Source of the DNA: Mytilus trossulus
Taxonomy: Eukaryota
DNA length: 64,000 nt
Direction of reading: 5' to 3'
Assembly (NCBI RefSeq): GCF_036588685.1
Contig: NC_086374.1
Span: forward strand, 45,384,001-45,448,000
In this document: in pieces, positions 10,319-63,522 of the stretch
Position numbering within the stretch: position 1 is the stretch's first letter
Layout: every line of letters begins with the position of its first letter
The notes under the pieces: model-generated
What the model was told of the DNA's origin: nothing
The model's database searches: none
What the model saw: the letters and a program-made list of their open reading frames with translations, nothing else
Made by a program: the position numbers and the translations under genes

Positions 10319-11314
10319 CATCGGTACAAGGACATCATTCGTAAATATAACTCAACATGTAGACTTCTTATACGTTCCAGTATTTCACATTCAATCTTTT
10401 ATGATAATATTCTCTACAAAGCACAAAAATGTCAGTACTCACCTCAGAGGCCAACAAAACCTTTCAACAGACTTATTAAGAAGGGTATAGTTACGATATT
10501 GTTGTCAGGTCAATAAAGATTGCATATTTTTGCTTTAATATTGATTCACTTATAGTTTTTTGCATCGGAATTAAACAAATTTATTTAAAAACCAGAGGTT
10601 GGCATGACACGAGTTATGTTCTTCCCATATATTTTATGATGTCATGAACAAATAGAGAAGGATTGTCTCTGATATTCATATGATGAAGACATAATCTTTA
10701 AATTAGTTTAATTGAGGTCTGGAGCTGGCATGTCATTAACTGCTAGTAGTCTGTTGTTATCTATGTATTATTGTCATTTTGTTTATTTTCTTTTGTTACC
10801 TCTTTTGACATCGGACTCGGACTTCTCTTCAACTGAATTTTATTGTGCGTATTGCTATGCGTTTACTTTTCTACATTAGCTAGATGTATAGGAGGAGGGT
10901 TGAGATATAAAAAAAACCCGTTTACCCACGCATCATTTTTTCGCCTGTCCCAAGACAGGAGCCTCTGACCTATGATAGTCTTGTATGATTTTTAAATTTT
11001 AGTTTCTTGTGTATAATTTGGAGTTTAGTATAATTAAACTCATCATAGATACCAGGACTAAATTTATTATATACGACAGACGCGCGTTTCGTCTACAAAA
11101 GACTCATCAGTGACGCTCGAATCCAAAAAAGTTCAAAATAACGTCCATTATCACTGAACTAGTATATATATTTGTTTAGAGGCCAGCTGAAGGACTCCTC
11201 CGGGTGCTAGAGTTTCTCGCTGCATTGAAGACCCATTGGTGACCTTCTGCTGTTGCCTGTTCTATGGTCGGGTTGTTGTCTCTGTGACACACTCCCCATT
11301 TACATTCTCAATTT
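10319..11314 (+). mobile_element. 5'-truncated retroelement, probably Penelope-like: frameshifted ORF end plus ~740 bp 3' region
   Basis: Translates as HRYKDIIRKYNSTCRLLIRSSISHSIFYDNILYKAQKCQYSPQRPTKPFNRLIKKG/YSYDIVVRSIKIAYFCFNIDSLI. A second copy at 4425-4945(-) encodes TKPLNRFIQKG..YDTIVRSSKMAYFGINIDSLI. A 3' tip copy lies at 24549-24665(-). Confidence 0.65.
11073..11118 (-). ncRNA. Type I hammerhead ribozyme, family 1, intact core with one stem I mismatch
   Basis: Minus strand reads gagcguca-CUGAUGA-gucu(uuugu)agac-GAAA-cgcgcg-UC^ugucgu. Confidence 0.88.
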
Positions 11315-16230: not shown

Positions 16231-16477
16231 CGTCTGTCTTATTACATGTACCTGTTGTTAGGTCTGTCTTATTACATGTACCTGTTGTTATGTCTGTCTT
16301 ATTACATGTACCTGTTGTTAGGTCTGTCTTATTACATGTACCTGTTGTTAGGTCTTTCTTATTACATGTACCTGTTGTTAGGTCTGTCTTATTACATGTA
16401 CCTGTTGTTAGGTCTTTCTTATTACATGTACCTGTTGTTAGGTCTGTCTTATTACATGTACCTGTTGTTAGGTCTGT
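16231..16477. repeat. Minisatellite, 30-bp unit x8
   Basis: GGTCTGTCTTATTACATGTACCTGTTGTTA, nearly homogeneous. Confidence 0.97.
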
Positions 16478-17403
16478 TTTCTGCAGTAAACATGTTGTGT
16501 GGTAGTATATATCCATAGTGTTTGTCCCGAAGCCTGTCTTTTCTAGTATGAGTGTTCTGTGATCTGAGTCTGTGGTATCGACTTATTGTTGATTCGTACG
16601 ACCGTTGTGTTGCTTTTGATTTGACTTGATCGGATTTTACAAAATGTTAACCCTTTTTGATGCAGTAATAGTTCGATATCTATTCACTCAGCGAGATCTG
16701 ATATTTCATACAATTTATCTATACTTTTACGACTTGTTTTTACAACAACAAATATAAATCTCATTACCAATAAAATATTTAATTACCTAACGACAAAATA
16801 TACCTCAATATAAGAGCAACATGACTTTCAAAATTGTTATTCTTGGAAATAACTTGACCCTTAACAAGATTCCGATCGTACTAACATGCATCACTAGCAT
16901 AAACAGTTAACGTTTTCGTGGTAAATTTCAATTAGAAGCAAATAAGATCAATCGATACCTCATCCAGTTGTTTTTCTTAATAATTTGAGGAACGCTAATG
17001 TAAATTGTCTATACTCGAGAACATCACCAGGTGCTTGTAGTATATTAAACAATTAACAAAAGCTTCAACGCTTTCTTTTGAAAACATGTGCCTGCCTTAT
17101 AAAACATTGCACGTTCTTTAATTTCATGTACGAACACACATGTCTGGTTACACAGAGTACTTCTAGTACATGTTTATTCTTCGGGTGCGGTAAATGTCAT
17201 GTTCATACACGTATAACTTCTGTGAGCAGATCAAGGCTTACATGTAAGCTACATTGTAGTTTCTGTTTCTGAAATAAAGCCCACTTTTATAGCACCTTGC
17301 AATTTCCATACAGCTTCGTTTTTAATTTGGTGGCTACTTAGTATTTTGGACTTTATTGAATATATATCCATAACAATGCTTTGTAAAGCTTTCAATTATA
17401 TAA

Positions 17404-20311: not shown

Positions 20312-21003
20312 TATAAAAAAGAAGATGTGGTATGATTGCCAATGAGACAACTATCGACAAAAGACCAAAAACCAAAATGACACATTAACAATTATAGGTC
20401 ACCGTACGGCCTTCAACAATGAGCAAAGCCCATACCGCATATAGTCAGCTATACAAGGCCCCGATAAGACAATGTAAAACAATTCAAGCGATTAAACTAA
20501 CGGCCTTATTTATGTAAAAAAATGAACGAAAAACAAATATGTAACACATAAACAAACGACAACCACTGAATTACAGGCTTCTGACTTGGGACAGGCACAT
20601 ACATAAATAATGTGGCGGGGTTAAACATGTTAGCGGGATCCCAACACTCCCCCTAACCTGGGACAGTGGTATAACAGTACAACATAAGAACGAACTATAA
20701 AAAATCAGTTGAAAAAGGCTTACATGTAACTCATCAAATAGACAAAAAATAAAAGTGGACGTGGCCGGGTACTTATACATCCCGACACAAAAAGACACAA
20801 TAAACAGATCTGAGAGTACTCGTAGTTATCTGACAGCTAGTTCAAAGCCATTAACAACTAATAAAAAAAATCATGCCTCTAAGACTAAGCAATCAATCCG
20901 TACACATCCAACATACAATGGATTTAGTGTAAAGACGTCATAAACAGCCAGAGAAAAACATGACCTTGTGCAATGCCAAGTTACAGGTATCGACACATTG
21001 TAG
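20312..21003 (-). mobile_element. Interspersed repeat (~690 bp) ending GTTGTCTCATTGGCAATCATACCACATCTTC
   Basis: Terminus shared with 13094-13470, 26116-26363 and 62775-62962; degraded internal copy at 11750-12160. Confidence 0.7.
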
Positions 21004-26115: not shown

Positions 26116-26363
26116 ATGGTGTGAGTGCCAATGAGACAACTCTCCATCCAAATAACAATTTATAAAAGTAAACCATTATAGGTCAATGTACAGCTTTCAA
26201 CACGGAGCTTTGGCTCACACCGAACAACAAGCTACAAAGTCCCCAAAACAACTAGTGTAAAACCATTCAAACGGGGAAACCAACGGTCTAATCTATATAA
26301 AAAACAAGAAACGAGAAACACGTATAAATTATATAAACAAACGACAACTACTGTAATCAGATA
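26116..26363 (-). mobile_element. Copy of the 13094 repeat family
   Basis: Colinear with 13107-13365. Confidence 0.75.
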
Positions 26364-29215: not shown

Positions 29216-30593
29216 TTCCTTACTGAAAAAATCAGCCTCCTCCAATCATTCGCTACATTCTGCTGCAAACTTGCAGCAAACACAGAGTCCGTGTTATCGG
29301 CATGTTTGCTGCAAATACGCTGCAGGTCTGCTGCAAACAATTTGCCATGCAAATGAGTGTTTGCTGCAGACCTGCTGCAAACATATTTTTGGAAATCAAT
29401 CGTTCGTCTGTGTGTTCGCTGCAGACATGCTACAAAAAATTATTTGCAAATGGGTGTTTGCCGCAGACCTGCTGCAAACATTCATATGCAAATGAGTGTT
29501 TTCTGTCGACCTGCTGCAAACATATTTTTTTGCAAATCAATCATTCTTCTGCGTGTTAGCTGCAGACATGCTGCAAACATTTATTTGCAAATGAGTGTTT
29601 GCCGCAGACCTGCTGCAAACATATTTATGCAAATTAAACTTTCTCCTGCATGTTTGCTGCAGACCTGGGGCAAACCTTTTTAATCAAATCAATCTGTTAT
29701 ACAATTAACTAATGTCATGTTGTGTACCAATCATTTTATCTATATTATACAGCAAATTCTAAAAACGTTATGTTTCATCCATTCATTAAATAATTCAATT
29801 AAATTATCATTTGAAAAAATATCCTGGCATAAGTTCATACCTCTTAACATGTTTAAGAAGTTAAATTAAGTTCGTTCTCAAATGAATTACATGCATGAGT
29901 CTAAAGTTAAACAAAAGATTTGTTTGACATTTACTTTGCGCATACGTGTATATATATTTATATATACAGCTAATTAAATTCAAATTGTCACAAAATTCAA
30001 CTAGACTTACATATTTCAAGCATAGAGGCAGTACTGTTACAGTATATTATATGGTTACATATTTGAAAATGTATGTTTAACCTTCATGTAGATATCTGTG
30101 GAGGGAATGCATTTCATAAGTTTACATTCTACGATGAATTTGTACTTACAAATAATGTCTTTAAAATCTAATCTGTTAACTGCAAAACTATAATGCCTCC
30201 CTGAACACTAATATATCATGACACAACTATCACCAACATTTTCAAATTTCAAATCTTTATCTTCCAGGAAGTTAACAATAGGCATGCTCAGTCGTTTTTT
30301 GTAGTTTCTTGCATTGCTCTTGCAATTATATAAAATTGTCAAAGATTCCTGCAATCTAGCTGCGAACATCCCTTATATTATAGTTTTTTCTGCAATCTTA
30401 CTGCAAACATATGTGTTTCTGCAAACTTGCCGCAAGCTTGCAGCAAAAAGCTGCAATGTTTGTAGGAGGTTGGCAAGCTAGATGCAAACATCTGCAAACA
30501 TTATTTAAAGGGTTACTGCAAGCTTTTTGTTTGCAACAGACCTGCATCAAGTTTGCAGCAGAGCTGCTGCAAACATTTCAGTTCTGTAAGGAA
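29216..30593. mobile_element. Non-autonomous TIR DNA element with subterminal (CTGCTGCAAAC) repeat arrays
   Basis: Ends TTCCTTACTGAA / TTCTGTAAGGAA are inverted; TCTGCTGCAAACTTG occurs near both ends in inverted orientation; arrays at 29255-29680 and 30345-30580. Confidence 0.75.
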
Positions 30594-30965: not shown

Positions 30966-32164
30966 TTTAACCCATTTTACGTTAAATGATATCTAACTGA
31001 TAGTTGTGAATATAGACCAGGGTCATTGAATTACAATAACTTAATTTTATGTAATTAAGTGTTGTGTAAGGAAAAAAATACATTTTCGTAATTATATGTG
31101 CATGTTCAGTTAAAAAATACTTTTTTATCCATTATTTGAAGTTTAAAAGAAATCTACTTGAATTTTTTCATGACGATCCCGACAGTTAAGATTTTTAGTT
31201 TTAAAGATACAATTACCTGTACCAAGTCAGGAATATGACAGCTGTTATCCATTCGTTTGATGTGTTTGAGCTTTAGTCTTTTGATAGGCACTTTCCATTT
31301 TGAATTTTCCTTAGAGCTTTTTTGTTTTTGTTTTTCTAACTTTTAGATACAGAGACGATTGTAATCATTCTAGATGTAAACCAGATCAATAATTGGAACT
31401 AACTTGATTGTTTTTCACGACTTAGATATCATTCGAAAATAGTACTTTTGAGTTAATATTTTGTCGGTTAAAATAAACGTTTAAGTTTGAATATAAGTAT
31501 CTCAAGACCGCAATTACTTTTTATTCTGCAAAGGTTGCAACCGGATGTAACCTATTCAGTGACTTTGTTTTAAGATTCCCTTGGAGTCTGTTGTATTGTA
31601 TAGATATAATTCATGTTGTTTTATTTTGAATCTGAAACAATGGTGAAATAAAAAAACACCTTTTTTGTTATTGTACTAGTACAAACACAGGAATTTGTGG
31701 CATGTACCATCCTTTTTATGGCCCCACTGTATCCAATATTTAAATTACAATTTTCTACCAGACATACTTGTAACAATCAAGTAATTGCTACGACACATTT
31801 AGAAGTATTTTATATATATATTGTACTTATACTGTACGTCCCTTCATTGTGTTATTGTTCTATTGTAATTTTTGTATTCTTGTCTTTCATTTTTGCTATT
31901 ATGCTTTGTCTTTATGCCTTATTGTGTTTCTTTTTTACATATGACGTGGCTCTGTACTTAAACATCCCTTCATTGTGATATTGTTCTATGATACAATAAC
32001 AAATATTATCTTTTATCTTTTGTAATACGCTTTGTCTATATGACGGTTTGGTGTTTTTTTCCCCATGAACTGTTGTGTTTGCCTCGGAGTTCAGTATTTT
32101 TGCGAGTTTACTTTTTGCTACTAGTTACTAACATCTACATTTTTTGGTTTCTAGTGGATATCTG

Positions 32165-32990: not shown

Positions 32991-35141
32991 AATCCTATCA
33001 CATCTTATATTAGTTATGTACTTTTTCCATCAAACGTTTAACTCAAGTACATATCTTATGATGACATGATTTCAATATAAATAAGCTCGCACAGATAAAT
33101 TATGTACATCCGCTAATGATTAAATTGATTGATAATCAAGATATGTTTTGTCTGATTAATTGACATTTTAACTTTAAAAAAAAAATCAAGTTCCTCTTTA
33201 GAGTATGCATAATTATTTCCTAAACAATTACACCGTATAACATTTATTTTGATTTTGTGAGAATTTCAAGAAAACGTGCAGATAATTTGTTTCACAGGTA
33301 ATTTATTATTCACTTAATCACGATTTAACGGAAGCATGTGCCCACTTTCCATTAAAATTGCATGCAACGTAATTTGAATCTGCATTATTTTGAATGAAAA
33401 TAATGACCCCAATTATATTAATTGTTAAAAAAATGTGTTATAATTACGGTAGTTACAAATTGCATATCCATTTTCAAATGAAAACAATAACTCTTGCTGA
33501 ACTATTTAATACGAATGTAACTTAAGTAGAAGTCGGTCTTCATGATAGCTATAATCCTAATTTTTGCCAATTCTCAAATATGTTTTAGAGTTATGCTTCT
33601 TTTAATATGTTAACAATGCTTGAATTAAATATCCATACTACAACAAAGGAAGCACTTATTCACTTCCCTTTAACTGTTATGGTATCATAGGCAGTATATC
33701 ATGATTAAAACTAACTCGGAGCTATAATTCTGTTAGATTACTAAACTTCCTTCACAATTGGCCACTTCAAAAGGTGACTCGGGAATATAAATATGGTCAC
33801 TTTGGTCATTTTCCGACCGGCAGTAAAATGAGGCCAAAAAATCAAATGCAATGAATATAGACGTTCTTTACAATATAAAAGTTTACACAGGAATATTCAG
33901 AAGAATGTAAAATTTGATAAAAATCTTAGAAACCACGTCCAGCTGTGCCGATCTATTCATTCGTCTCTTTTTTTAGTTTGATAACCAAATTGATAGCATC
34001 TAGCAAAATGAACTCCAGTGTTTATAACATTAATCATCGAGAACTAATCCTAGGCCTTCGATATAAAAAGATACATTTATATTTTATTCAATTGATGGCT
34101 TTAAATTCAAACTTGGCAGCGACATTGTATACAAGTATATTATCAGATGAAAGATACAAAAACGCATATCATTATGTATGTCTCATTTATCAGATTTAAA
34201 TTTTTACAAGGCAGCTACCGAATGTTTTCTTATTAAACCCATTGCATTTCTTACTTGCAGAGGTATAGGGTTATACCCATACTATCCACTAAGTATCTGT
34301 GTCATATATGAAACAAAATGTGATTTTGTTGTTGTCCCTTTCCAGTTCAAGAGATGTTCCATTCCGATTTTAAATGTCATAACATGAAATAAAGAATTCC
34401 AAGGTTAAATAATATTGTAGGAAATAACGACCTCTAAAAGGAAATAAATAAAAAGTAATTACATGTGGAGCCCGATAACCTTAAACTTCTAGAGCACCCG
34501 ATCTCATCTAGTTTTAAATAAAAGGTGTTCCTGTTGCTATTGCTCTAGAATAAGTTATATCTTTGGTATCTTTCGTCCCTCTTTTAAAAATGTTTTACTT
34601 TTTGCTGTTTACTTTTTGTTTAAGTTCGTAATGTTTCTATCGATACCAGTCTTGTCGATCTTATGTCCCAAAAATCTTGTTTCAAATAAAATTTGCTATC
34701 TGGTTAAACATTAGGGTTAGACTATTTACATGATTCATTGATTGCTTCCGATTATGTTAATGTCTCATAGTAAAATAAGAGCTATTTGTAAGCATTCGAA
34801 TGAACTAATAAACATGTTACACATAAGAAGCATGATGGATGATCAGTATTTGCCAACCTTTTAGTCAACCTGTAGTTGGATAGCCCCGTTTATTGGCGGG
34901 GATCATCTTGTACTTGTTTAAGCTGTGTTTTGTAGACTTTTGATTTTATTTTCATCAACATTTTGTTCCATGGCGTTGTCATAGTCTAGCGCCATATCAA
35001 TTAGCATTCGACCTATGGAATTGTATATCCAATTTGAAACTTTCACCTCTCTTCAACGACGATTGCCTTAATCATCTTTGGCACAACATTTTGGAATTTG
35101 TTTTCTTCTTGTTATTTGATTTTTTTACAACTGTTTTTATT

Positions 35142-35188
35142 CGAGCAACTGGTGAGTCTTGATTTAGACGAATCACGCGTCTTTCGTA
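35142..35188 (+). pseudogene. Degenerate family 1 hammerhead relic
   Basis: CTGGTGA-gtct...agac-GAAT-cacgcg-TC: core mutated, but aligns with the 42006 copy. Confidence 0.7.
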
Positions 35189-35314
35189 ATAGTAAGTAAG
35201 CCTGATAATTTTGTATAAGTTTTATATGAGTTTGGCTATTTATTTTAGGTATTTTTGTCATATAGCTCTTCAATGATTTTCGGTATGTATACATTTTTAA
35301 ATGTTTGGCTTTGA

Positions 35315-38300: not shown

Positions 38301-38450
38301 CACGGTAATCAGATCTTTAAATATTGTTTTATTGGTATAAATATTGATTTTGTTATCATTTAGTTAAAACCAAAGTAGCTGATATTTTAGTAATTGAGAT
38401 ACATGATAGTTCTGTTAGTTGGCATTGGCTTTTACTAGCTGTCAGTAACA

Positions 38451-38948
38451 CTCAGATATAAACATAGTCTTTTCTGGTTGTGTGGCAGGTCCGTGCTTTT
38501 GTAACTCTCAGATATAAACATAGTGTTTTTGGGTTGTGTGGCAGGTCCATGCTTTTGTAACTCTCAGATATAAACATAGTCTTTTTTGGTTATGTGGCAG
38601 GTCCGTGCACTTTTAACTCTCAGATAGAGGCATAGTGTTTTTTGGTAGTGTGGCAGGTCCGTGATTTTGTAATTCTCAGATATAGACATATAGTTTTTTG
38701 GTTGTGTGGCAGGTCCGTGCTTTTGTAACTCTCAGATATAAACATAGTGTTTTTAGTTGTGTGGCAGGTCCATGCTTTTATAACTCTCAGATATAAACAT
38801 AGTCTTTTTTGGTTGTGTGGCAGGTCCGTGATTTTGTAATTCTCAGATATAAACATAATGTTTTTTGGTTGTGTGGCAGGTCCGTTATTTTGTAATTCTC
38901 ATATATAAACATAGTGTTTTTTGGTTGTGTGGCAGGTCCGTGATTTTG
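38451..38948. repeat. Minisatellite, ~56-bp unit x9
   Basis: CTCAGATATAAACATAGTGTTTTTTGGTTGTGTGGCAGGTCCGTGCTTTTGTAACT. Confidence 0.97.
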
Positions 38949-39099
38949 TTAGATGTTTTCTGCGTTGTATCGATCAATGTTAAATCATATTCCATTGATT
39001 ATTATAGTCTGTTCATAGTTTCTGTTACATTACTAGTTTTGGTCCTTCTGTTTAGGTTATATGCCTCTTTTAACATGTTTTAGTATTTATTTAATCCTT

Positions 39100-41970: not shown

Positions 41971-42176
41971 AATAGTTATCAAAAGTACCAGGATTATAAT
42001 TTTATACGCCAGACGCGCGTTTCGTCTACACAAGACTCATCAGTGACGCTCAGATCAAAATAGTTAAAAAGCCAAATAAATACAAAGTTGAAGAGCATTG
42101 AGGATCCAAAATTCCAAAAAGTTGTGCCAAATACGGCTAAGGTAATCTACTCCTGGGGTAAGAAAATCCTTAGTAT
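41971..42176 (-). mobile_element. Retrozyme-like HHR-bearing repeat (5'-truncated monomer)
   Basis: Contains the intact HHR. Homologous to 49165-49349(+), 54035-54200(-), 61307-61620(+), 62986-63192(-) and 11031-11140(-); several share the 3' end GGTACCTTTGATAACTATT. Confidence 0.8.
42006..42051 (-). ncRNA. Type I hammerhead ribozyme, family 1, intact
   Basis: Minus strand reads gagcguca-CUGAUGA-gucu(ugugu)agac-GAAA-cgcgcg-UC^uggcgu. Stems I-III pair; GUC triplet; predicted cut at 42012/42011. Confidence 0.92.
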
Positions 42177-44080
42177 TACGTTTACATTATATTATATTTC
42201 AGAGGCAAAAGATACCAATAGGACATATAAACTCTGTAGTCGAAAAAACAGAAACAACTAACAAAATTATGGCAAAACAAAAATTACGTACACAATAAGT
42301 TCGAATAAATAAGGAAAAATGCAGTTTTTGACACGTGTGATGTTTGTAAAAACACTTTTGAGGTAATACCTGAGGACATTTATCCTATAATGTGACATAA
42401 ACAGTTTAGTATAATACTTAGAATACCACACGCTGGTCATGGTTTTCTTCGAAGTTCTTTCGTCCCTCATTTGCAAAGTCACGAACCTTGCAGAGACATT
42501 AAAATGATGAATGATGCAATTGCGGAACCATACAAATTACGTTAATATTATAGTATAAATGAGAGACAAAAGATACAATTAGGACATTTAAACACTTTAG
42601 TCGAAAAAAAGACTAATTGACAACACTTTGGCATCCCTCCCCCCCCAAAAAAAAACCAATCCCAAACAACAGGAATACAGTAGTATAAATGAGAACACAT
42701 AAAGATTTCGTAAGCGTTGTTGAATGTTCGTTTGTACAAACACTTTCCTTAAAATATCTGTGGAATTTTATAATATAAAAGTTGTAATATGATATAAATA
42801 TTTATGTTAAAATATTACAATACCACACGCCTGTTTTCTTCAAAATTGATAAGTCACGAATTTTGAAGGGACACTTATATTCGAATGGTGTAACTGCAGT
42901 TCCATACAAATTAAGTTTATATGAAATATTATAAATGAGAGACAAACGATAATTATATGATATTCAAACTCTGTAGTGGAACAAGAAACTGACATGGCCA
43001 TGACAAAAAAAAAAAGAAACCCACAAAACATATCATATAAAACTAAGGACTGAGTAACACGAATCACACCTCATACCGGTGGTGATTTCATGTGCTTCGG
43101 AAAGGTACGAAGAGCTTGCTCAACATACGCCATGGAATTTATAAATTGTAAGGATTTTGCAGGTTGTGCTGTACCTCAGTTGTCTATTCTAATTTCCATT
43201 TTGATAAGTGTTGCTGTCTTTTTGCAGCATATTATGCAACGTTTATAATCTTCATTATTAAATCATTTTGAGTCTACATTTTCATTTATGCAGCAAAAAC
43301 ATCTGATTGCGGGATTAATTATAAACGATACAGTGTATTTAATTAATAGCCAAACTATATTATGTTACGCTATGATCCAAACATACAAAAACAGAAATGT
43401 GCGTCTTCGATTTAGAATTGTAGTTTACATGTACTTAGATATATAGTCAGACTGTCACAATTATATATCATCCGACTATTATACTTCATGAACTTCAAAA
43501 TACAAATTTTAGAAATCCCCAAAAAATACAGGAAGCAGGAATTTTGTTTACAAAGTTTGAAACAGTGTAACAACTTAATGTTTCATGAGGAACACTTAAA
43601 GTTGACAGTGCAAATACTTGATAAAAGTCATCTTTGAATATTTATATCTATTTCAGAAGAAGAGGATGTTCTTTGAAAAAGATCATCAATTTTTTGCTGA
43701 ACATAATATTAACTTCCTTAATTTAATAATGAAATATTTTTCCATCAGGCTAACAGAGAGGATATCAAGTATCAAAAGTCCAAACACATTTGTCAGTGTT
43801 GGATAATTTTAAACATGTGCCCACAATCGATTAAAACTTTAAAAGTATCAAAAGCAAACAACTGAATGGTTTTATTACAGGTAAAGGAAAACAAACCTGA
43901 CATAATTTAACAAAATTTGCAATTCTCATCATAACTATCATTATATTAACTGCGTATTTAAATGTAAATACAAAGAAAATAAAGAATTGTTTTGTTCTAT
44001 TCACTTGTTTATAAATAAAACATTTTATCTAGACTAGTTCAATTTATTTTTGAAAAGCAACCCTGAAACACTAAATCGCT

Positions 44081-47100: not shown

Positions 47101-50100
47101 CGTGACACGTCTTATAATAATAACGTCTTATGATAACGCGGAAGAATACAAAGTTTTGTTTCCAATGTTAGAGCAGCTAAGATTGTATTCGAACAGTATT
47201 ATTTTGAACATGTACAGATGTGATCAATTTGTGGCAAAAATTTCCTGGCATTTCCCGAGAAAGTTAGCATGCATAGGTATTCCAATTGATTAGGTATAAA
47301 GATATATCAATATAAATTGTTAACATATACATGATCATTATACAATTACATTGGTAATTACGTTTAAGTATACATCTGTCCGTTCTTGAAACATGCGTTT
47401 CTTCTAATAATAATGGTTACCAAACATAGTCTATATTGCGAATGAAAATATAACCTAAATGATTGAACATATATTTGTTATATGCTAAATTGCATTTTTA
47501 TGTACACCATCCTCCTCAAAACTTATTAAGAAAAGTTATCATTTCATATAAGTGTATTACATTTTTAATGGCCCTGAAAATGAAATATGAAGGCGTATCG
47601 TTTATTGCACGGGTTCTGTATTAGAATTTGAGTAAGGTAAATAAATAGATAAATCAACTGTTTTCATTTGTACTACGAATGTAAAAGTAATTATACATGT
47701 ATGTCAAACATGTGCATTTTGTTACTTGATTTTATTATTTTTGTCTATTTACTCTATGCAGTAATCAAATTCAATTCCATGACGTCAATTTGACTGCTAT
47801 TAAAACTGCGGTCAGAAAGCGAGTTAGAGTGGTCTTTCTTTGTTCGTTGTTTATCTAACAAATTGAATCGTTCGTCTTTCTACAACATTACATTGTTACA
47901 ATCAACACACAAATAAAATGTGTTCTTATCAAGTCACTTAATGTATTCATATTAAAGGAAAGTATGTAAAAAACTCAACTTTATTTAAGAATTAAATCCG
48001 TTTTTTGTAACTTCACTGGGGATGTAAAAGCGTTGACCGAATTACATATAGCCATTACATTGACTGTCCCTTTGGTATCTTTCGTCCGTCCCTCTCTTGT
48101 ATGAAGCACGGAAACGATTCATTCCAAATATGTGCACACTGTGAACGCTTTTACAACCCTGTGAAGTTATAAAAAGAATTCAATACTTATTATTACCTTT
48201 TTTTTTTTTTAGCTAAGATCATTAAAACACGATTTTTAACAAGTTTACTAATTTACCTGTGCACTTTATTGTGGAACTTCGGGTCATCATTAATGATAAA
48301 TTGTATTGTGTAATGAAATTGATTAAGGAATAACACGAGATGTGCAGTTAGCCAATTAGAATAATTGAAACATACATGTAATGTAATTATTCGTAGTTAT
48401 ACGTGTAGTTCCATATAGCTCCATATCATTTTAATAAGTTCATATTAATATTCATATTCTAAGATTCCGGGTTTATAATTTTGTACGCCAGACGCAAGCT
48501 GATACTTTAGATAGACAAATTCCGGAGGAAAATTCTGGAAGTTGTGCCACAATCAATATCTCGCAGTAGCGAAAACCTTAGAGTTTTGAATAATTCCCCA
48601 TTTTCTATGCAGTACAGAAAATGATCAAATCAATGATGCATAATATTCATTTCAGAAGTTATGGCTACTGGAGTTGGAATAAACGTTTACCGACTCTTTA
48701 AGTCATACATTTGTAAATAGGTACACACGTATCTGTTCGTTATTTATGTCTTGAACTGTGCATTAATATATGAACAATTTCAGGTGAAAAATAATAAGGT
48801 TAATTTATACATTGTACATAAATAAATCTTCCACTCCGATTCTCCTCTTTTCGTTTAACTGTTATACTCGGTACAACAGTTTTCTATTTTACAATTACCA
48901 TAATTACTAATACATATAGAACTGAACAGTACAAGATCAAGATTGCCTGATCCGCTCTATGCACAACATTTGGTTGCGATAACCTTTTTATGTTTAAGGT
49001 GTTCCCGGGGATGTGTTATTGTAAGTGCTCGAAAACATGTTTAACGGCCACCACATTTGTCTATGTCTGTCTTAGATCAGTATTCAGTGGTTTTTGTCTG
49101 TCCTAGGCATTTTTCTTTTTTTGTTTAAGGGCCGTCTGTTTTTTCATTTCATCTCTTTTCTTATCCAAAGTAGATACCGTAACCTTGGCCGTATTTGGCA
49201 CAGATTTTTGGAACTTATGGTTCTCAATGCTCTTTGACTTTGTACTTGTTTTGGCTTTCGAACTTTTCTTTATCAAAACGTTACTTATGAGTCTTGTGTG
49301 GACGAGGTGTGCGAATTTATAATAAAGCATGCTACCTTTTGATAGCTATAATATGTGTGTTTCTCTGTTCTGCATGTTCTTCTAATTTTTTGTAGTCCTG
49401 TCTTGAAATATCGTCATTTAATGTTATATTTAACATAGCAATAAAAGCGGGAGGTTTGGCTAGCCACAAAACCAGGTTCAATCCACCATATTTTCTTTAA
49501 ATGTCCTTTTCCAAGTCCGGAAAATGGTCATTGTTATATTATAGTTCGTTTCTGCGTGTGTGGCATTTTGGTGTTGTGTTGCTGTTGTGTCTTTGTTCTC
49601 CTATTTTATTTGATGTGTTTCCCTCAGTTTTAGTTTGTAAGCCAGGATTGTTTTTTTCTCAATCGATTTATGAGTTTCGAACAGCGGAATACTACTGTTG
49701 CCTTTTTTTTCAATTCTTTACATTTTGTCATCTCGAGTACTTTAAATATGCTTATTCGGCTCATGGCTTTAGTTTCAGGAAGTGAACCACAACTTTTATT
49801 TTCCAACAACACGCATATACTGTTGAATGCTTTGGATAGTGACAAGTCGAGGGTACTTGTAGAAACAATGACTAGTTCTGTTTCATTTGTTGACTATCAT
49901 TTAACGGATGGATCTATTTACTGGTCAGATCAAAATAAGCAGACAATTAGCAGGTATCATTATAACTGTAACTTCTAAGCTTCTGTACACAATTCTTGTA
50001 TCGTTTATATTTTGACAATCGAATAAAAATAATGTAACTTCATGTGATTTTAATTTTAGAAATGAAAAATTGAATAGATGAATGATGAGAGAGATAAAGA

Positions 50101-53100
50101 GAGAATAAATCAAGACCAAAGTCTGTAGTTTATGTCATATGACTCTTCGAAAATTAATTATTATGAAATTATTGACAAATATATTATAGTGTATTACGAT
50201 AAAACATACAATAGTCGTATTTCAATGGTGTTTGTATATATAATTTTTTTCTCTCAAGGAAAACGTGTTCATTAGGTAACGAAAACTCAATCACAGAAAC
50301 TATAATTCAAAACTCGAAAGCCATGGGAATAGCCGTAGACTCAATAAACGATCATCTATATTGGGCAGACATAGATAGAGCTGCTATAAAAAGGTCTAGT
50401 TTGAATGGTTCCAGTATTGAAGTTATTTTAGACGAATCATTGCAAACTCCCGTTGCCATTACTATAGACACCTCAAACAGGTAAATAATGAGAGTTTCAA
50501 TAAATCTAGATTAAACAAGAATTTAATGTAAGAGAAAAATGGCAGTTGTCACTATTGTTAGGCTGTTCTTCGGTATTGTCTTATTATTCGAATGATATGT
50601 CTGTTTATAAGTCATGAAATTGTTCAAAACTAAAGTTACAACTATCTCAAGCAAATCTGAACTTTTACTACGTTTGCTGCTTCTAGATCTGGTTGTAATG
50701 CTGAACATGCATTATGTGTTTGACTTTACCAAATTATAGTGTTGAAGGTATCTAATTTCCAGTTTGTAACACGGGTCTGACACAATGAAATCGGTTTCTA
50801 ATATTTTTATTATGTTAAAGATTTGTAATTCAGTAAAAAGGATTTTATCGATTCTTTATTATACAGTATTTATTTTATATTAACTTATTATATGCATTAA
50901 TGGGTCAAGAAAAGGTGTTGGTTTTGTGATAAGAATAAAACAAAGTAACAGAATCATATACTCTTAAAAACAATCCAACAAATCAAGATAGATCATGGCT
51001 TGCTAGTAAACAGATAAGGATACGTTTGGTCTAGTATAGAAATTTGTATCATGCTGAAAGGCCCAAAAGAAAACTATTCACTTTTTATCTGTTAAAAACA
51101 AACTCTATGATGTAACCATTTAAAAAGATTCTACATATCAGAGTGCAAGTTATTGACAGCAAGCTTTACATGTACATACGGAAACAGCTAATAGATAATA
51201 GTGATAGGTAAATATATAATACTGTGATGAGTATGAGTAGAAAATTTTCACAATATTCCCGTTCATGCATATCAAAATAATCTTGATAACTACAGTAAAA
51301 AAAAAACAGAAACAAAAAATGGTAATCAACTATACAAACTTTTAGGAACATCACAAACATTTTATATGAGTGATGTTTATGAGGCAAAACTCTCACCAAA
51401 AACTTGTAGAATAAGATATTTTTATGACAATATAATGTTTCTTCATCGTTTATGTAAATTAAAATATCCTGCCAACCACATATACCATAATTTTAAACAA
51501 ATGTATTATCGTTTACAGCTGGTTATACTTCAGTGATCACGGCAGACATACAATCGAGAAATGTAAATTTGATGGAAGTAGCAGACATACACTTATAAAT
51601 GAAGACGTACAGACCCCATATGGTTTAGCCTTGGGTAAATAATTGAAGTTTCTTAATCAACCTGTACAGTGTCTAAAAAAGTAGTAATTTGTATACCGCT
51701 AAGCTACTATTTACATTTGCGCCATTTCTTTATTAGCACAAATTTGCTTTTTAAATAATATAATACTTTGGGACTGATTTTTTTTAATTTTTCAATTTTA
51801 AGCCATGGCGTTGTCAGTTTATTTTCGATCTATGAGTTTGACTGTCCCTTTGGTATCTTTACTACCTCTTTCGTGCATCAGATACCACTTTCGACAATAA
51901 AGTCTTAGCTCAAGGCCAAAATATTTGAAAAATCTAAAATTTATCAGTTTGGGCTAATGTATTATCTGGTATACTTGCCAATAGACAATTATCCACTACG
52001 GATCACAGGACGCAGATGTTATCAAGTTTAGGTCACCATAACGTCTTCATTAAATTTGGACAAAACTCATTTCGTTTACGAAGGGCTATATCAAAAGGTC
52101 TCCAGCATAACAAAAGAGTGACTAAAGATACCAGAGGGACAGTCAAACTTATAAATCGAATATAAACTGACAACTCTATGGCTAAAAATGAAAAAAGTCA
52201 AACAGACCATCAATAGTAAACATGACACAACATAAAAAGTAAAGAATGAACAACACGAACCCCACCAAAAACTAGGGTGGATCTCACGTGCTCCGGCAGG
52301 GTAAGCAGATCCTGCTTCATACGTGACACCCGTCGTGCTGCTCATGTGATAACAAATTCGGTAAATTGTCATGCAACAATTTAAATGACGAAACAAGCGT
52401 TATGACTTATGCTTAAACATTAAACTAAAAACGACTATGATAGACAACCACTTACTAGTGTACTACATGACTTTAATAGTCACATTTGTGACTAACTCCC
52501 TAACCTTGTAAATTGATGATACACACAACATAAGAACACTGTATAAATCAGTTTAAAAGGTCTTCAATCTTGGGCTAAAAACAAAAATAACTAATAAATG
52601 ATATCAGACCAGCATATGAGAACACCATGGGTTATTGTTTGGAAGGTTTTTTGTTGCTCAATCTAGTTTTCTAGTGTTTTGAGTACTGTTGTTTAACTTT
52701 TCATCGTTTTTCGAATTTTTGCCATGGCTTGTCAGTTTGTTTTCGAATAATGAGTTTGAATACAGCTTTGGTATATTTTGCCCTCTTTTAAAGTGACTAA
52801 TCAGATATTTATCAAACGATAAGATGAATATGAGTATTTGCATTATTTCTAACCAATTTTACCATCGTTTCGGATCAAATGGGTACGGTTGATTTACAAT
52901 TTACACAAGCTCTTTCAGGAAATGTAGTCATTAACAGACATTTATATTTACATACAGACTTGAACTCAAAAAGATTATATTGGACCGATTCTGCATTGTA
53001 TCACATCAAATCTTCTAATTTGGATGGCACTGATGTTAAAGTAGTCTCCATAGATGTATCATCATTGGTAGACATTTCTATTGTTGTTATGGGAATCGAC

Positions 53101-55491
53101 TTATATGGATCTTACTTGTATGTTAGTAATCTTGGAACTGGAGTATACAGGATACAGAAAAACAAACAGAATGCTGTGCCACACAGAATATCTGGGACGC
53201 ATCATTCAGCTTATGGTGTAAAGATAACAAGTAAGCATCATGAAACAAATAACTATTTATACTGTTTTCTTGGTGAACGTCCTAACAACATATATAACAA
53301 ATAGTGTTTATCCGTATATAAGCGTTTCTCAGCTTCCTTACCTTTCAAAATTTTAGAATTCATTCAAGCCAATGAAACTGGGCCCACACTAATGAACAAG
53401 CTTCCTTACTTTTCAAAATTTTAGAATTCATTCAAGCCAATGAAACTGGGCCCACACTAATGAACAATCAAACAGTATCACTTGTTGATAAGTAATACAT
53501 TGTAATTCCAAAATGACGCGTATGGTGTCTACAACTATAGCATTGCACCGTTAATCAAATATCTGCTACGAATGAACTTACTTTATTGTTCAAAAGAATA
53601 AATGAAAACTTCTGTAACTTGGTAATGTCTTCTATAAAATTGTTTTTAAAGACAGGTTTATATTACTTTTATATATGAATTTATTTATATTCGTATGACG
53701 TTTGGCATCATTCCGAGTCATATCTGAAGCCGCTCAACCTGTCGATAGTATGATACCATGATTCATCCCTATTCAATTACAAAATTTTATCAATGGTTGT
53801 CATAATTTAAAAGTTTTGAAATCTATATGCTACACAACAGACGGTAAACGTGAGACACACAAAACACAAACATACATATAGATGCCAACATAGAAAGTAG
53901 TTGAATTGATAACATAACGTCATATGTGTGGCTGAAAAATTGTCTTTTATGACCCCAAATCAGACGGAAAACCCGCATAACAATACATTAATAGGAAAGA
54001 AAGAAAATCAGCTTCTAAATAAAATAAGTATAGATAGCAGGATTTTGTACGCCAGACGAACTGTTCTTCTCCAAGAGACTCATTAGTGACGATCTAATCA
54101 AACAACGTCAACAAATCCCAAAAGGTATCAACTTGTGTATTATTATGGACCCACATTTCTCACTGGATTCTCAAAAATACAGCTAAGATAATCTTCTCCT
54201 GACTTATGTCTGAAAAAAACGGGAAAATAAGTATATTTGCCTGCACATTGCACTTACTACATGTATTTATAATGATTGATATTGTAGAAAGTCACAGTGA
54301 CACAAGTGATGCAACAACGATGAAAGGTAAGGTCATTTTGTCTTTTTCATTTTCATCATCATAATCGCTATCGTTTGTTTTTTATCTCCTTTTCATTTTT
54401 TAGTATAGTTTAGTAAATATTTATGTTGTTACAATAATATAATACATGCTCACATTCAATTTGTATATATATATATATATTGTATTGTGGAGAAGGCTAA
54501 CTTGTGTTTGATCCTTTTTCGCATTGATCAAATCAAATATGTTTAAACTAAAATATTATTCAAGATATATTTCATGGCGATGCAACATATATAATTGAAA
54601 CGATATTTCACCAGATTCCCGATTGCCACCATTTTTTTGAGTAACAATTAGGCCAGCAGAATCCAGGCGAATTGCAAACGATCTCAAATCATTCCATCCA
54701 CATTACAGTGAACAATTTCATTAACCACCTCTATGAACTTTTGTGTTTTGTGTTTTCTTATGGCAGTATGCTTCAAATATTCAGTACATAACGACATGTG
54801 ATTACAGCACATGTTTATAAAATCAGTACTTTAAATCTAGAGACTTCCTGTGTTTTTTGTAATTTCATCTGTGTATATATCTCCAAGACTAGGTGATTGT
54901 GCGTAAATAACAAACTTATCTTGCTGGAAAATAATATTCAAATCAATAAATAAGTATACTCTACATGTTTTACTTGAGTTAAATTGTAACGGAATGCGCG
55001 CAAATGAAACCAATAGTTGCGCGATAACATTTGTATTCCCGGTGAAAGTCTACCTGTTTGCTCGTATTCTCCTGTATGAAGAGCTTTTTATATACATAGA
55101 GTGTTATATATCCATGATGGGTAAATATTTAAAATTGGTATCTATCTGGTATCTCTGATAGCGAAAGTCTACCTGTTGGCTCTTATTCCCTTGTATGAAG
55201 AGCTTGTTATATACCTAGAGTGTTATATATTCATGATGGGTAAACATTTAAAATGGGTGTCTTGCATCTCTGATGTCATCGTAGAATTTCCTCATCCAGA
55301 TTTTGGATAAATATCATTTACACAACATGTCTGCATCAAAGTATTAAAACAATCAAAATCTGTAAGATATTTCGAACAAATAATTTTCCTTTTTTTGTTA
55401 TTTTTCAGGATCTGTTGGACAAATGATCATACTGTTTGCTGGAATCCTATTCGTTGAATTTCAAAACATTCATATCCATATAAAATGGTGA
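44081..55491 (+). CDS. Stand-alone YWTD beta-propeller protein (LRP/LDLR class B repeat family), 323 aa; join(44081..44138,49773..49953,50259..50480,51519..51634,52958..53230,54288..54326,55409..55491)
   Basis: All introns are GT-AG with compatible phases (1,2,2,1,1,1). Exons total 972 nt = 324 codons, open to TGA at 55489-91. Six blade motifs: LLFSN, IYWSD, LYWAD, LYFSD, LYWTD, LYVSN. Signal peptide MFTILSCTIVAFYLVQLKFVSG-SE; hydrophobic C-terminus. Confidence 0.85.
44228..44412 (-). mobile_element. tRNA-derived SINE with V-domain-like core, internally deleted, in intron 1
   Basis: B box GAGTTCGAATCCC, GGTCGGTGGTTCTCTCTGTGCACTCCGG core and TTAAACACCAATCAATCAA tail. Confidence 0.7.
47986..48189. 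mobile_element. Fold-back/palindromic MITE-like element with a nested retroelement tail
   Basis: ~55-bp inverted arms (TAACTTCACTGGGGATGTAAAAGCGTTGACC vs GTGAACGCTTTTACAACCCTGTGAAGTTA); foreign sequence at ~48050-48096. Confidence 0.7.
49165..49349 (+). mobile_element. Retrozyme-like repeat copy in intron 1, HHR core destroyed
   Basis: acgtta-CTTATGA-gtcttgtgtggac-GAGG at 49278-49313; flanks match the family. Confidence 0.7.
49773..49953 (+). CDS. Coding exon 2 (SGSEPQLLFSNN...VDYHLTDGSIYWSDQNKQTISR)
   Basis: Acceptor TTTAG at 49772 (alternative in-frame CAG at 49778), donor AG|GTATCA; LLFSN and YWSD motifs. Confidence 0.9.
50259..50480 (+). CDS. Coding exon 3 (KTCSLG...AMGIAVDSINDHLYWADIDRAAIKRSSLNGS...TPVAITIDTSNS)
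   Basis: Polypyrimidine tract plus AAG acceptor, donor AG|GTAAAT; classic GIAVD-LYWAD-I.RSSLNG repeat. Missing from the ORF track. Confidence 0.93.
51519..51634 (+). CDS. Coding exon 4 (WLYFSDHGRHTIEKCKFDGSSRHTLINEDVQTPYGLAL)
   Basis: TTTACAG acceptor, G|GTAAAT donor; YWTD-type repeat with P.GLALD. Confidence 0.93.
52112..52366 (-). mobile_element. Copy of the 58488 family in intron 4
   Basis: Near-colinear reverse complement of 58560-58805; explains the similar spurious ORFs SSTTGVT.EAGSAYP and SNTTGATCGAGSDYP. Confidence 0.8.
52958..53230 (+). CDS. Coding exon 5 (DLNSKRLYWTDSALYHIKSSNLDGTD...GIDLYGSYLYVSN...AYGVKIT)
   Basis: CATACAG acceptor, A|GTAAGC donor; canonical YWTD motif; lies within ORF 52879..53304. 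Confidence 0.93.
53331..53467. repeat. Tandem duplication, 68 bp x2 (intron 5)
   Basis: AGCTTCCTTAC.TTTCAAAATTTTAGAATTCATTCAAGCCAATGAAACTGGGCCCACACTAATGAACA occurs twice. Confidence 0.93.
54035..54200 (-). mobile_element. Degenerate retrozyme-like repeat copy in intron 5
   Basis: tacgccagacg...gactcattagtgacg; core reads CUAAUGA/GAAC. Confidence 0.6.
54288..54326 (+). CDS. Coding exon 6, 39-nt Ser/Thr linker micro-exon (KSHSDTSDATTMK)
   Basis: TTGTAG acceptor, AAG|GTAAGG donor, symmetric phase 1, open frame. Confidence 0.7.
55044..55273. repeat. Tandem duplication, ~119 bp x2 (intron 6)
   Basis: GAAAGTCTACCTGTT.GCTC.TATTC...ATCTCTGAT at 55044 and 55163. Confidence 0.88.
55409..55491 (+). 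CDS. Terminal coding exon (GSVGQMIILFAGILFVEFQNIHIHIKW*)
   Basis: Long polypyrimidine tract with TTTTTCAG acceptor, phase 1, hydrophobic stretch, stop followed by AATAAA. Confidence 0.75.
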
Positions 55492-57996: not shown

Positions 57997-58142
57997 CAAT
58001 AAAATTAACGCTACCAATTTTCTTGCACCAGATGCGCATTTCGACAATATTTGTCTCTTCAGTGATGCTCGTGGCCAAAATATTTGAAATCCAAAGCTTA
58101 CATAAAAGATGAAGAGCTATAATCCAAAAGGTTAAAAAAGTA
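57997..58142 (-). mobile_element. Family 3 HHR-bearing repeat
   Basis: Carries the intact HHR; flank GAAGAGC...ATCCAAAA..AAAAAG resembles family 1; a relic copy lies at 51873-51935. Confidence 0.7.
58025..58070 (-). ncRNA. Type I hammerhead ribozyme, family 3, intact
   Basis: Minus strand reads gagcauca-CUGAAGA-gacaa(aua)uuguc-GAAA-ugcgca-UC^uggugc. AUC triplet; predicted cut at 58031/58030. Confidence 0.92.
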
Positions 58143-58373
58143 TACTGTTGTGTATTTTGTTAATTGAAATTTAAGTATGTACTTCAAAACAATTCTGAAA
58201 GTATCAAGTGTTCTTTTGTTTAATTTTTGTCTTTTTTTACATCTTTTTCTTTCTGTATTTTTTTTCATACTTACTACAACACCATTTTGCTAATACTTTA
58301 TTTTTGTAATATTTGAATGCTTAAAATTACTGACTGTATCTTTTAACTGTTATTGATTTTTTATTTGTATGTT

Positions 58374-58420: not shown

Positions 58421-58487
58421 AATAGTTAATTAAAGTGTCACACATTGATTGGCATAAATACAGCCAAACCTGTTACAAGATATGATT

Positions 58488-58805
58488 TCGGATATTTTCC
58501 TTACATCGTAACTACAATCCCCTTCCCTTTCATAAATGTGACCTACCGAGTCAGACTATTTACCGGATTTGTCAAGCAACACGACGGGTGCCACATGTGG
58601 AGCAGGATCTGATTACCCTTCCGGGGCACCTGAGATCACCCCTAGTGTTTGGTGGGGTTCGTGTTGGTTATTCTTTTGTTTTCTGTATTGTGTCATGTGT
58701 ACTATTGTTTGTCTGTTTGTCTTTTTCATTTTAAGCCATGGCGTTGTCAGTTTGTTTTCGATTTACGAGTTTGACCGTCCCTTTGATATTTTTCGTCCCT
58801 CTTTT
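58488..58805 (+). mobile_element. 3' end of an abundant retroelement family ending GGTATCTTTCGTCCCTCTTTT
   Basis: Other copies: 52112-52366(-), 27810-28110(-), 42935-43130(-), 63215-63350(-), 51790-51872(+), 52610-52789(+), 62632-62682(+), 48060-48096(+), 34480-34585(+). Confidence 0.8.
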
Positions 58806-61306: not shown

Positions 61307-61620
61307 ACAGAGGGTATCACCAGCACAGTAGTCTGAACTTCGGTGTTGACATGAATATCAATTATATGGTCATTTGTAAGAGTTAACTGTTTGCAAAAGT
61401 ATGAAATATTCGAAATACTAAGGATGTTCCCATCCCAGGCATAGATTATTTTAGCAGTATTTGGCAAAAGTTTTTGATTTTTTGGTTCTCAGTGCTCTTC
61501 AACTTTATACTCGTTTGGCTGTTTAACTATTTTTATCTTTTTGATCACTGCTGAGTCTTATGGAGACGAAACGCGCATATGGTGAATCAAATTAAAAGTC
61601 TGGTACCTTTGACAACAATT
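61307..61620 (+). mobile_element. Longest copy (~310 bp) of the retrozyme-like repeat, with mutated HHR (CUGCUGA) at 61543-61585
   Basis: Aligns with the reverse complement of 41971-42176; ends GGTACCTTTGACAACAATT. Confidence 0.75.
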
Positions 61621-62774
61621 GTATCATATTAATATGAATCTGTATCTTGATCTACCCAATTCATATATGCATCGATTTATCAAACTATGTAACGAAATGT
61701 ATCTATTCTTATAACGTTGTTTTTAATTGAATGTATGATCACATATTGAAGAAACAAATGAATTGAGGTAAAACAGCAAAGTTTAAAATAATATACAACA
61801 ATACATATGAACAGGAAAAACTTATTAACTTATTATCTACTATTTGATGCAGTATTATTTTTTTCTACCAATATAAACAAAACTGCATTTATATGTATGT
61901 ATGAAAATAATCTGTACACGTGAAAACCAACATACTGTATAGTAGTTTTCTTTGAACACCTTTAATAAGTTTTACAAAATAATTAATTTATTTTTGTAAC
62001 AGAAAAGAAAGGTGCAATAAACATGTGTTTGAGGGTTGGATAGCCTCAAATCAAGGTTAAACCTTCAATTTTTTTCTTCTAAAAGTGTCCTGTACTAATA
62101 CAGAATATGGTAGTTGTTATCTACAGTTCGCTTATAAGTATGTTTGCATTTCCCTTTGTTGCAGGTCAGTATTTCGTTTGTTCAGTTTTATTCCTCTTTT
62201 ACTTGATGTGTTTGAATTTATTTTTTTACTTAACTAAATTATTACTATAGCAACTGGTATACTTTTCTGGTTTCATTATCTGCACTGAATACATGTGAAT
62301 AAGTCAATGGTTTTATATCAAAATATAATAATACTAGGATTGCAATTTGAAGTATGAAGTTATTATTAAGGACAACAGTAGTATACCGGTTATCAAATTC
62401 GTAAATCGATTAAGAAAAAAAACATATCCGGGTTCCAAAATAAAATTGAGGGAAACACATCAAATATAAGAGGGAGAACTACGACACAACAGAAACACAA
62501 AACTAAAATGTAACACACACAGACACGAACTATAATATTACAGTGACCATTTTCCTCACTTGGAATAGGGCATTTTAAGAAAAATATGGTGATTTGAACC
62601 TGATTTTGCGGCTAGACAAACCTCACGCTTGTTTTAGATTTATGAGTTTCACTGTCCCTTTGGTATCTTTCGTCCCTCTTTTATTGTAATGTTAAATATA
62701 ACATTAAAAAGAGAACAATACATGACATGACTACATTACAAATAAATGCAAGGACAAAGACATTACAAATAAAC

Positions 62775-62962: not shown

Positions 62963-62985
62963 TCTTATTACACTAGGACATGCTA

Positions 62986-63192
62986 ATAGTTATCAAAGGT
63001 ACCTGGCTTTTAATTTAATACACCATACGTGCGTTTCGTCTAATCGAGAATCTTCAATTACGCTCAGAGCAAAAAAGTAAAGAAAGCCAAACAACTACAA
63101 AATTGAAGATCATTGGTGACCCAAAAATTCTAAAAAGCGGAGCCAAATACAGCTAGGGGTTTCTATGCCTAGGATAAAAAAATCATAAGTAT
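62986..63192 (-). mobile_element. Retrozyme-like repeat copy with mutated HHR (UUGAAGA) at 63019-63066
   Basis: Colinear with 41971-42176. Confidence 0.75.
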
Positions 63193-63522
63193 TTAAATTA
63201 GAGCATTGTGATAGAGAGATGAAAGATACCATACAGTTATTCAAACTCATAAATTAACAACAATTTGACAACGCCATGTTCAAATAACGAAAAATTATCA
63301 ATAGACATAGAACAGTCTACAAAGCTAAAGACTGAGGTACACGAACTTTGCCAAACGTTAATATTTGTATTTGTCTCATCAAAATCACACACACCGAATA
63401 TGAAATGTTTGATAGTGCGTGCTTAAATGAGACATATTTATCTAGAATACTCAAAAATTCCAGTCAAACATTTATTTTTACATAATCGTACAAATGCGTC
63501 AATGCTTCCATTATAGCATTTA

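Follow-up and report, generated by a model that had tools for sequence, protein, structure and literature searches.

Copies of a mussel-type hammerhead retrozyme in Mytilus trossulus end at a fixed 3' boundary, which is set by a hairpin block lying just downstream of it and not by the distance from the ribozyme cut. The same hairpin opens Penelope-like elements of the Naiad clade, whose own 3' ends fall in a matching register, and the retrozyme junction carries no scar at the cut. The boundary probably marks the point at which a Naiad reverse transcriptase, docked on the predicted hairpin, starts to copy retrozyme RNA that is continuous across the cut; binding, priming, and the identity of the acting Naiad family are what we infer from this pattern.

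A mussel-type retrozyme and its copies in the window

The window analyzed here is a 64,000-nt stretch of contig NC_086374.1. Its copy at 41971..42177 is a 5'-truncated insertion of the known mussel-type retrozyme, a 355-nt tandem hammerhead repeat, an identity assigned because size, ribozyme type, and tandem layout match those of the mussel non-LTR retrozymes. Cervera and de la Pena (2020, PMC7229834) describe these as tandem repeats of 350-390 bp that have a type I hammerhead, number in the thousands, are low in GC, and contain no coding frame; for metazoan non-LTR retrozymes in general, the repeat length is 150-450 bp. According to the same paper, mussel retrozyme RNA self-cleaves, the ribozyme is slow (about 0.1 per minute), and circles are the main form in mussel tissue by northern blot (PMC7229834).

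In the genome searched (1.30 Gb, 14 large contigs), the 22-nt core has 20,132 exact occurrences, often spaced 354-355 nt apart. Tandem arrays of the unit, which the sequence-only reading had proposed looking for, are present, with a period of 355 nt in L003 and long arrays on C1. Inspected by eye for LTR, primer-binding site, polypurine tract, and gene, the monomers are simple tandem units, and they form three subfamilies, A (~355 nt), B (365-368 nt), and C (350-355 nt). Compared with Rfam Hammerhead_1 (RF00163), the motif in the L003 tandem unit scores 33 bits (E 9.6e-07), one bit short of the gathering score of 34, and the whole window gives 0 Rfam matches at gathering score. As single-strand folding of the hammerhead by itself (z 0.08) does not give the catalytic fold, the identity of the hammerhead rests on the covariance model. 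The retrozyme is transcribed: 6,001 reads of RNA run X24, the one run from which the RNA evidence comes and whose species match is provisional, were placed on it with a strand bias.

The retrozyme copies in the window, and the parts of the copy at 41971..42177, are as follows.

41971..42177, minus strand: 5'-truncated retrozyme copy of subfamily A, 207 nt, with unit positions 190-355 followed by 1-41; 98% to the tandem monomer from L003
42006..42049, minus strand: type I hammerhead ribozyme of this copy, assigned from sequence; the same motif in L003 matches Rfam RF00163
41971..42011, minus strand: 41-nt stretch from the cut to the fixed 3' end; reverse transcription would start at 41971, and the hairpin expected next is not copied
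62985..63194, minus strand: subfamily A copy with its end at +41, 80% identity
61312..61620, plus strand: subfamily A copy with its end at +41, 81% identity; unit positions 88-355, then 1-41
49156..49349, plus strand: decayed subfamily A copy with its end at ~+40; BLAST to 49305, looser pairwise alignment to 49349, position 40
11031..11138, minus strand: subfamily B copy with its end at +48 (anchor -4), 91% to the B monomer
57998..58144, minus strand: subfamily C copy with its end at +33 (anchor -5), 93% to the C monomer
35077..35222, plus strand: decayed copy that extends as far as the end region of subfamily B; BLAST, then looser scoring
54042..54201, minus strand: decayed copy whose alignment stops at +13, 69% identity

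The predicted cut of the copy at 41971..42177 lies between 42012 and 42011 on the minus strand, and the copy end at 41971 is 41 nt past it. The sequence-only reading had proposed that this copy and those ending at 62985, 61620, and 49349 share one 3' end, and that the variants at 11031 and 57998 end at a similar distance. The first three do stop together, all at unit position 41, the one at 61620 with a variant of the end motif quoted for the group. For the copy at 49349, the shared end appears under looser alignment (position 40) but not by BLAST, which stops at 49305. The two variants end at +48 and +33 and not at +41; what they have in common is a position 4-5 nt before the same downstream anchor. 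Altogether, five of the eight BLAST-detected copies in the window have a 3' end within -9..0 of this anchor, and when scoring is relaxed, two of the remaining three, those ending at 49349 and 35222, also extend into the end region. Variable 5' extents, put at ~110 to ~310 bp, agree with copy lengths of 109-310 nt. The 5' end of the copy at 61312..61620 lies inside the hairpin, so only the 3' part of the hairpin is present there.

The window also holds unrelated tandem repeats at 38359-39005, 16169-16558, and 29307-29689 (periods of 56 nt, 30 nt, and ~42-57 nt) and another dispersed repeat family at 13098-13388, 20319-20602, and 26108-26353 (D10, D14, D16, D18).

Position of the 3' ends

Ends were mapped in a positional sample of 55 stretches of 10 kb (550 kb) at fixed round positions, where matches of at least 40 nt were mapped against the three subfamilies; 56 were found, one ran off the end of its stretch, and 55 were scored. 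A fixed boundary downstream of the cut, as the sequence-only reading had it, is what this sample returns: 33 of the 55 3' ends fall in one 10-nt interval, -9..0 of the anchor, and the 5' ends are scattered over the whole unit. With 10 of ~355 positions so occupied, the binomial p is ~5e-37, taking HSPs as independent, a few of which are local duplicates. Only 1 of the 55 ends lies within 5 nt of the cut, where ~1.7 are expected. Neither random ends nor a concentration of ends at the cut, the two outcomes named beforehand as refuting, were seen in this sample. The other 22 ends (~40%) are outside the interval, and many of these belong to decayed or rearranged copies.

The same boundary appears in other samples. 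On C1, where loci were selected through the core 22-mer, the same 10-nt interval takes in 33 of 40 3' ends. Genome-wide, 17,294 exact 19-mers end at +41, of which 12,835 (74%) keep the 8 nt upstream and 7,082 (41%) continue for 8 nt downstream, and 195 reads of RNA run X24 exit the retrozyme at exactly +41 into unrelated flanks.

Measured from the cut, the ends differ by subfamily: those of A lie at ~+41-45, ragged over ~5 nt with peaks at +41, +43, and +45, those of B at +46-50, and those of C at +33-35. Unlike the distance from the cut, the distance from the end to the conserved downstream block is constant across subfamilies. It is because the ends track the hairpin where the cut-to-hairpin distance differs that we take the hairpin, and not the cut, to set the end. 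The terminal unit itself is missing the hairpin, which is regained only by copies longer than ~315 nt.

Past the ends, sets collected without bias have unremarkable AT-rich flanks (31% GC). A fixed GTAT target after the end was considered and set aside as an artefact of the query's own flank, with only 526 exact cases and ordinary flanks. Regular target-site duplication of the kind left by LINE-type target-primed insertion was likewise rejected, as the excess is weak and clear cases are rare: duplications of at least 8 nt were found in 6 of 78 copies (null mean 1.4) and of at least 7 nt in 11 of 78 (null mean 4.1). Of the genome-wide mapping proposed with the sequence-only reading, the end distribution came out clustered in the 55-stretch sample, and the target duplications are mostly missing (6/78).

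Two rearranged loci came up in the course of mapping. L119:308-705 holds two retrozyme copies, inverted and tail to tail, each of which begins at unit position 158. L061:1067-4768, close to the start of C1, holds four near-identical copies of 1.3-1.5 units with the same 3' flank; three are preceded by TTAGGG-like repeats, and we read the group as a later segmental duplication.

A hairpin shared with Naiad elements

The block just downstream of the retrozyme end folds as a long, bulged, predicted hairpin of 63 nt (z -2.3 to -3.5 in five representatives). It is the best-kept part of the retrozyme unit, with a strongly conserved bulged core. The elements with which it is shared were identified through a GIY-YIG (PF01541) search of the genome, which gave 149 matches; 20 loci were enlarged, and those with an N-terminal endonuclease and CxC and DKA motifs are assigned to the Naiads. 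In the family 1 protein, PF01541 occupies residues 183-273 of 1056, N-terminal to the reverse transcriptase. Family 2, found via a pattern for the hairpin core, encodes a protein 58% identical to that of family 1, with GIY-YIG at 58-95 (weak, E 0.03) and RVT_1 at 623-777. Translations of both families contain the CxC and DKA motifs. As 16 of 111 scored family 1 places lie within a 1056-codon open frame, family 1 is taken to be young; none of the 20 family 2 loci fetched holds a complete frame, the longest being 923 aa. One unit of each family was searched on both strands for a hammerhead core and none was found, nor did Rfam return a match on the family 1 junction.

Between full Naiad units and retrozyme units, the hairpin is the sole similarity. 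The retrozyme and family 2 hairpins are 84-87% identical over 63-70 nt (87% over 63 nt), and similarity to family 1 extends over 35 nt. In family 1 the hairpin is at the 5' start, with an outer helix that is different but complementary and with an extra hairpin. In an 11-row alignment, 99.2% of 132 cells are paired, against 27-54% in slid controls. Four of the 12 hairpin pairs have changed on both sides across the two Naiad families and the retrozymes, a covariation that draws on five lineages, with the structure taken from the same sequences. As many doubly changed pairs arose in 23 of 500 shuffles, or, more weakly, in 178 of 500 when family 1 was left out. The G-U variants suggest that RNA of the retrozyme strand would be the paired form. 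We also considered the hairpin as a known ribozyme and rejected this, as Rfam over the hairpin gave no match near a gathering score and no ribozyme family.

The motif extends beyond this genome. Read by eye, the published Naiad consensus sequences of several invertebrates include 11 that begin with the hairpin core motif; the helix letters are others, and pairing is apparently kept (supplement of PMC8557442). The opening letters of family 1 are, by eye, nearly those of the published Naiad_Mgal and Naiad_Mcor (PMC8557442). Of 14 loci carrying Penelope-like genes with a C-terminal endonuclease, 13 lack the motif, and the single match is a retrozyme insertion.

The 3' ends of the Naiads fall in the register of the retrozyme ends. 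In the positional sample plus the window, 35 of 67 family 2 ends (24 of 36 at 80% identity or more) and 21 of 44 family 1 ends lie within -9..0 of the retrozyme anchor, and those outside the register are mostly short or decayed matches. The following Naiad ends lie in the window.

58482..58804, plus strand: Naiad family 2 copy with its 3' end at unit position 3369 of 3370; 91% over 330 nt
51788..51871, plus strand: 3' end of a Naiad family 2 copy; window match to family 2
52113..52370, minus strand: 3' end of a Naiad family 2 copy; window match to family 2
52638..52788, plus strand: 3' end of a Naiad family 2 copy; window match to family 2
62629..62681, plus strand: 3' end of a Naiad family 2 copy; window match to family 2
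63213..63294, minus strand: 3' end of a Naiad family 2 copy; window match to family 2
31216..31344, plus strand: Naiad family 1 copy with its 3' end at unit position 4276 of 4277; window match to family 1

The six family 2 ends are at unit positions 3367-3369 of 3370. A fixed 3' end, variable 5' truncation, and partial tandems, which together form the Penelope-like signature, are found in the retrozyme and in the Naiads.

Several shorter repeats also bear the hairpin. An 11-unit array with a 78-bp period, at L233:2144-2924 (C5, about 60.42 Mb), consists of the family 2 hairpin and a few flanking bases only, and is possibly a minimal parasite of the same signal. L200, L206, and L207 are short family 2 derivatives in which the hairpin is joined to the 3' end with no hammerhead; the period of these mini-elements is 145 nt in L200 and 201 nt in L206. 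At L209:1482-1559, the hairpin occurs in a fourth repeat variant, which differs in its downstream sequence.

Template, helper, and alternative explanations

The proposed cycle would begin with transcription of the arrays, hammerhead cleavage, and ligation into circles, steps published for mussel, of which transcription is the one seen here. The Naiad protein would then bind the hairpin, and its GIY-YIG endonuclease would nick AT-rich DNA, the free end priming 5-7 nt before the first helix of the hairpin. We propose this nick and priming step because of the end positions and because of experiments on a lizard Poseidon element. That element, PAc of the green anole, starts reverse transcription internally, downstream of its hammerhead, and cannot do without the RNA on the 3' side of that point (Frangieh et al. 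2024, PMC11167929); its genomic ends fall on the start sites, its targets are AT-rich, and ribozyme cleavage is dispensable (PMC11167929). On the retrozyme, the enzyme would copy 33-50 nt, pass the intact cut site, and stop at a variable point, which may produce either short 5'-truncated copies or multi-unit arrays, the end pattern of which is observed.

Taken together, the fixed ends off the cut, the tandem arrays, and the scar-free junction fit a template that runs unbroken through the cut and is copied from a defined internal point. At this junction, 121 distinct units, selected for intact motifs on both sides, show no indel at -3..+5 of the cut. Such a template is what the sequence-only reading had deduced from a few copies. 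The ribozyme core is well kept in the same 121 units, again with selection for intact flanking motifs. Neighboring units of one insertion carry mostly private changes (shared alleles 30/248, versus 43% between insertions), and for 44 of 62 units the nearest neighbor is in the same insertion. Such a pattern would fit one monomer read round and would equally fit a homogeneous array. In six of 50 copies of at least 360 nt (L079, L031, L218, L012, L007, L028), the 5' end falls within the hammerhead core, 2-7 nt short of the cut; some templates may be cut there, or the enzyme may stall. In X24, the strand bias is ~3-4-fold on the retrozyme and none is seen on Naiad 3' ends, with strandedness and species match provisional. 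Back-joints in this run are explicable by circles or by tandem arrays, and read starts and ends pile up neither at the cut nor at +41 in its fragmented libraries, which are insensitive to such a signal.

A ligated circle is somewhat the likelier template when set against an uncleaved multimer. In the latter case, the same hairpin and enzyme would act on a linear multimer or a read-through transcript, and cleavage and circles would be irrelevant to copying. We regard this as rather unlikely, and it stays alive because PAc does not need ribozyme cleavage: Poseidon ribozyme mutants insert normally, with unprocessed RNA as the main substrate (PMC11167929). The slow mussel ribozyme (PMC7229834) points the same way, as do the Naiads, which have no hammerhead yet show the same end pattern, and long homogeneous arrays would also yield near-identical neighboring units. 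The northern-blot predominance of circles in mussel tissue (PMC7229834) argues for the circle, as does the well-kept ribozyme core of the 121 units, selected though these were. A third kind of template, a cut monomer held shut by hammerhead helix I with the enzyme jumping the nick, is remote. The six long copies that stop 2-7 nt before the cut, noticed after the fact, would suit it, but their stops lie before the cut and not at it, and the 121 units are free of indels there. The boundary could instead reflect an RNA-processing signal in the hairpin (a new self-cleaving motif, a nuclease site, or a transcription start) that makes an RNA end at ~+41, with copying from that end and tandems formed by template jumps. 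Its place at the very 5' start of Naiad consensuses recalls the 5' ribozymes of some non-LTR elements, and its bulged core is strongly conserved; we nevertheless consider this quite unlikely. None of 77 long retrozyme copies begins at the hairpin start, and 31 of 33 independent family 2 hairpins (11 array-internal repeats having been set aside from 44) are preceded by the element's own 3' end over a near-uniform junction. Full-length circles are published (PMC7229834), no Rfam ribozyme matches the hairpin, and X24 has no read-end pile-up, a result for which fragmented libraries are weak.

Improbable, too, is a boundary made in DNA, by an endonuclease that cuts the element's own cDNA or DNA at the hairpin sequence while resolving an insertion intermediate. 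Craig et al. ascribe the 30-40 bp Penelope-like tail to endonuclease resolution (PMC8557442), and the Drosophila Penelope endonuclease required the tail for recognition (as cited in PMC11167929). Yet what is conserved is pairing, with G-U variants and compensated pairs, which would suit single-stranded RNA of retrozyme polarity, and the Poseidon tail maps to reverse-transcription start sites (PMC11167929). As for the enzyme, a canonical hammerhead-bearing Penelope-like element with a C-terminal endonuclease could be the helper and the Naiad-like hairpin a relic. Hammerheads near C-terminal-endonuclease genes do resemble subfamily C (~70 nt at 78-81%), and frog retrozymes have been tied to pseudo-LTRs of such elements (2026 preprint, 10.64898/2026.07.22.740005). 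This is very improbable in our view: in each of the three subfamilies the ends track the hairpin and agree with those of the Naiads, and the hairpin, the best-kept part of the unit, is missing from 13 of 14 C-terminal-endonuclease loci. With a Naiad as the probable helper, the retrozyme hairpin is closest to that of family 2, which has no complete frame in 20 loci; intact family 1 differs in the outer helix and the extra hairpin.

A further hammerhead repeat, without the Naiad hairpin, is found near C-terminal-endonuclease Penelope-like genes in L179, L183, L184, L186, and L189. Its ribozyme and the next 30 nt are 78-81% identical to those of subfamily C, and it is possibly the donor of the retrozyme's ribozyme.

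The retrozyme element, the Naiads, and internal initiation are each already known, the last for one Penelope-like element, PAc. Copying of mussel retrozyme circles by a Penelope-like enzyme has been proposed (PMC7229834), and, according to a 2020 review, animal retrozymes have no conserved motif that would point to their autonomous element (PMC7761336). The repeat studied here shares the tandem unit and type I hammerhead of the mussel retrozymes; the helper motif and the start register are new relative to the descriptions drawn on (PMC7229834, PMC7761336). The Naiad clade as described by Craig et al. 2021 (PMC8557442) has an N-terminal GIY-YIG, CxC and DKA motifs, no hammerhead, 5' truncation, and partial tandems, and families 1 and 2 resemble it in all of these; the portion of that description used here mentions neither a conserved 5' RNA hairpin nor a retrozyme partner. 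Unlike a Naiad, the retrozyme has no gene, and the hairpin is all that the two have in common. PAc differs in being autonomous, in belonging to another clade, and in starting ~85-92 nt past the cut inside its coding frame (PMC11167929), whereas the retrozyme is non-coding and has its start signal from a ribozyme-less clade. Li, Clavereau and Pollet likewise have retrozymes depend on Penelope-like elements (2026 preprint, 10.64898/2026.07.22.740005). Their case is made from co-occurrence in frogs and pseudo-LTR similarity, and the part of the preprint cited contains no end mapping or shared start hairpin and names Naiad only in a clade list and as present in coral (10.64898/2026.07.22.740005). 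A literature search, with most subscription papers, Repbase, and two supplements outside its reach, returned no report of a Naiad-retrozyme link, a shared start hairpin, or a Naiad helper.

SINE-LINE partnerships are similar in that a non-coding element relies on the enzyme of another, which it recruits by an RNA structure common to both, the 3' recognition tail. The SINE-LINE signal is inside the copied 3' end, whereas that of the retrozyme is situated immediately outside it, and copying must pass one full unit to recover it. Naiads are abundant in bivalve genomes, and the hairpin is the first candidate recognition signal for them. Tentatively, and with more doubt than conviction, we suggest that the hairpin may be a portable retrotransposition origin across invertebrate Naiads, such that any circular or tandem RNA carrying it would be copied round from just 5' of it. 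The Naiads would then rely on circular or tandem templates that carry no hammerhead, and the retrozyme would be a chimera of a canonical Penelope-like hammerhead and a Naiad origin, a viroid-like circle with programmable genome entry. There would be technical uses for a short, portable RNA signal that directs the target-primed insertion of circles. The enzyme that mobilizes animal retrozymes, and the point at which it begins, have been named as an open question (2020 review, PMC7761336). The hairpin shared with Naiads and the matching ends give that question a named helper, a candidate binding site, and a start nucleotide, which are testable in an existing in-vitro assay.
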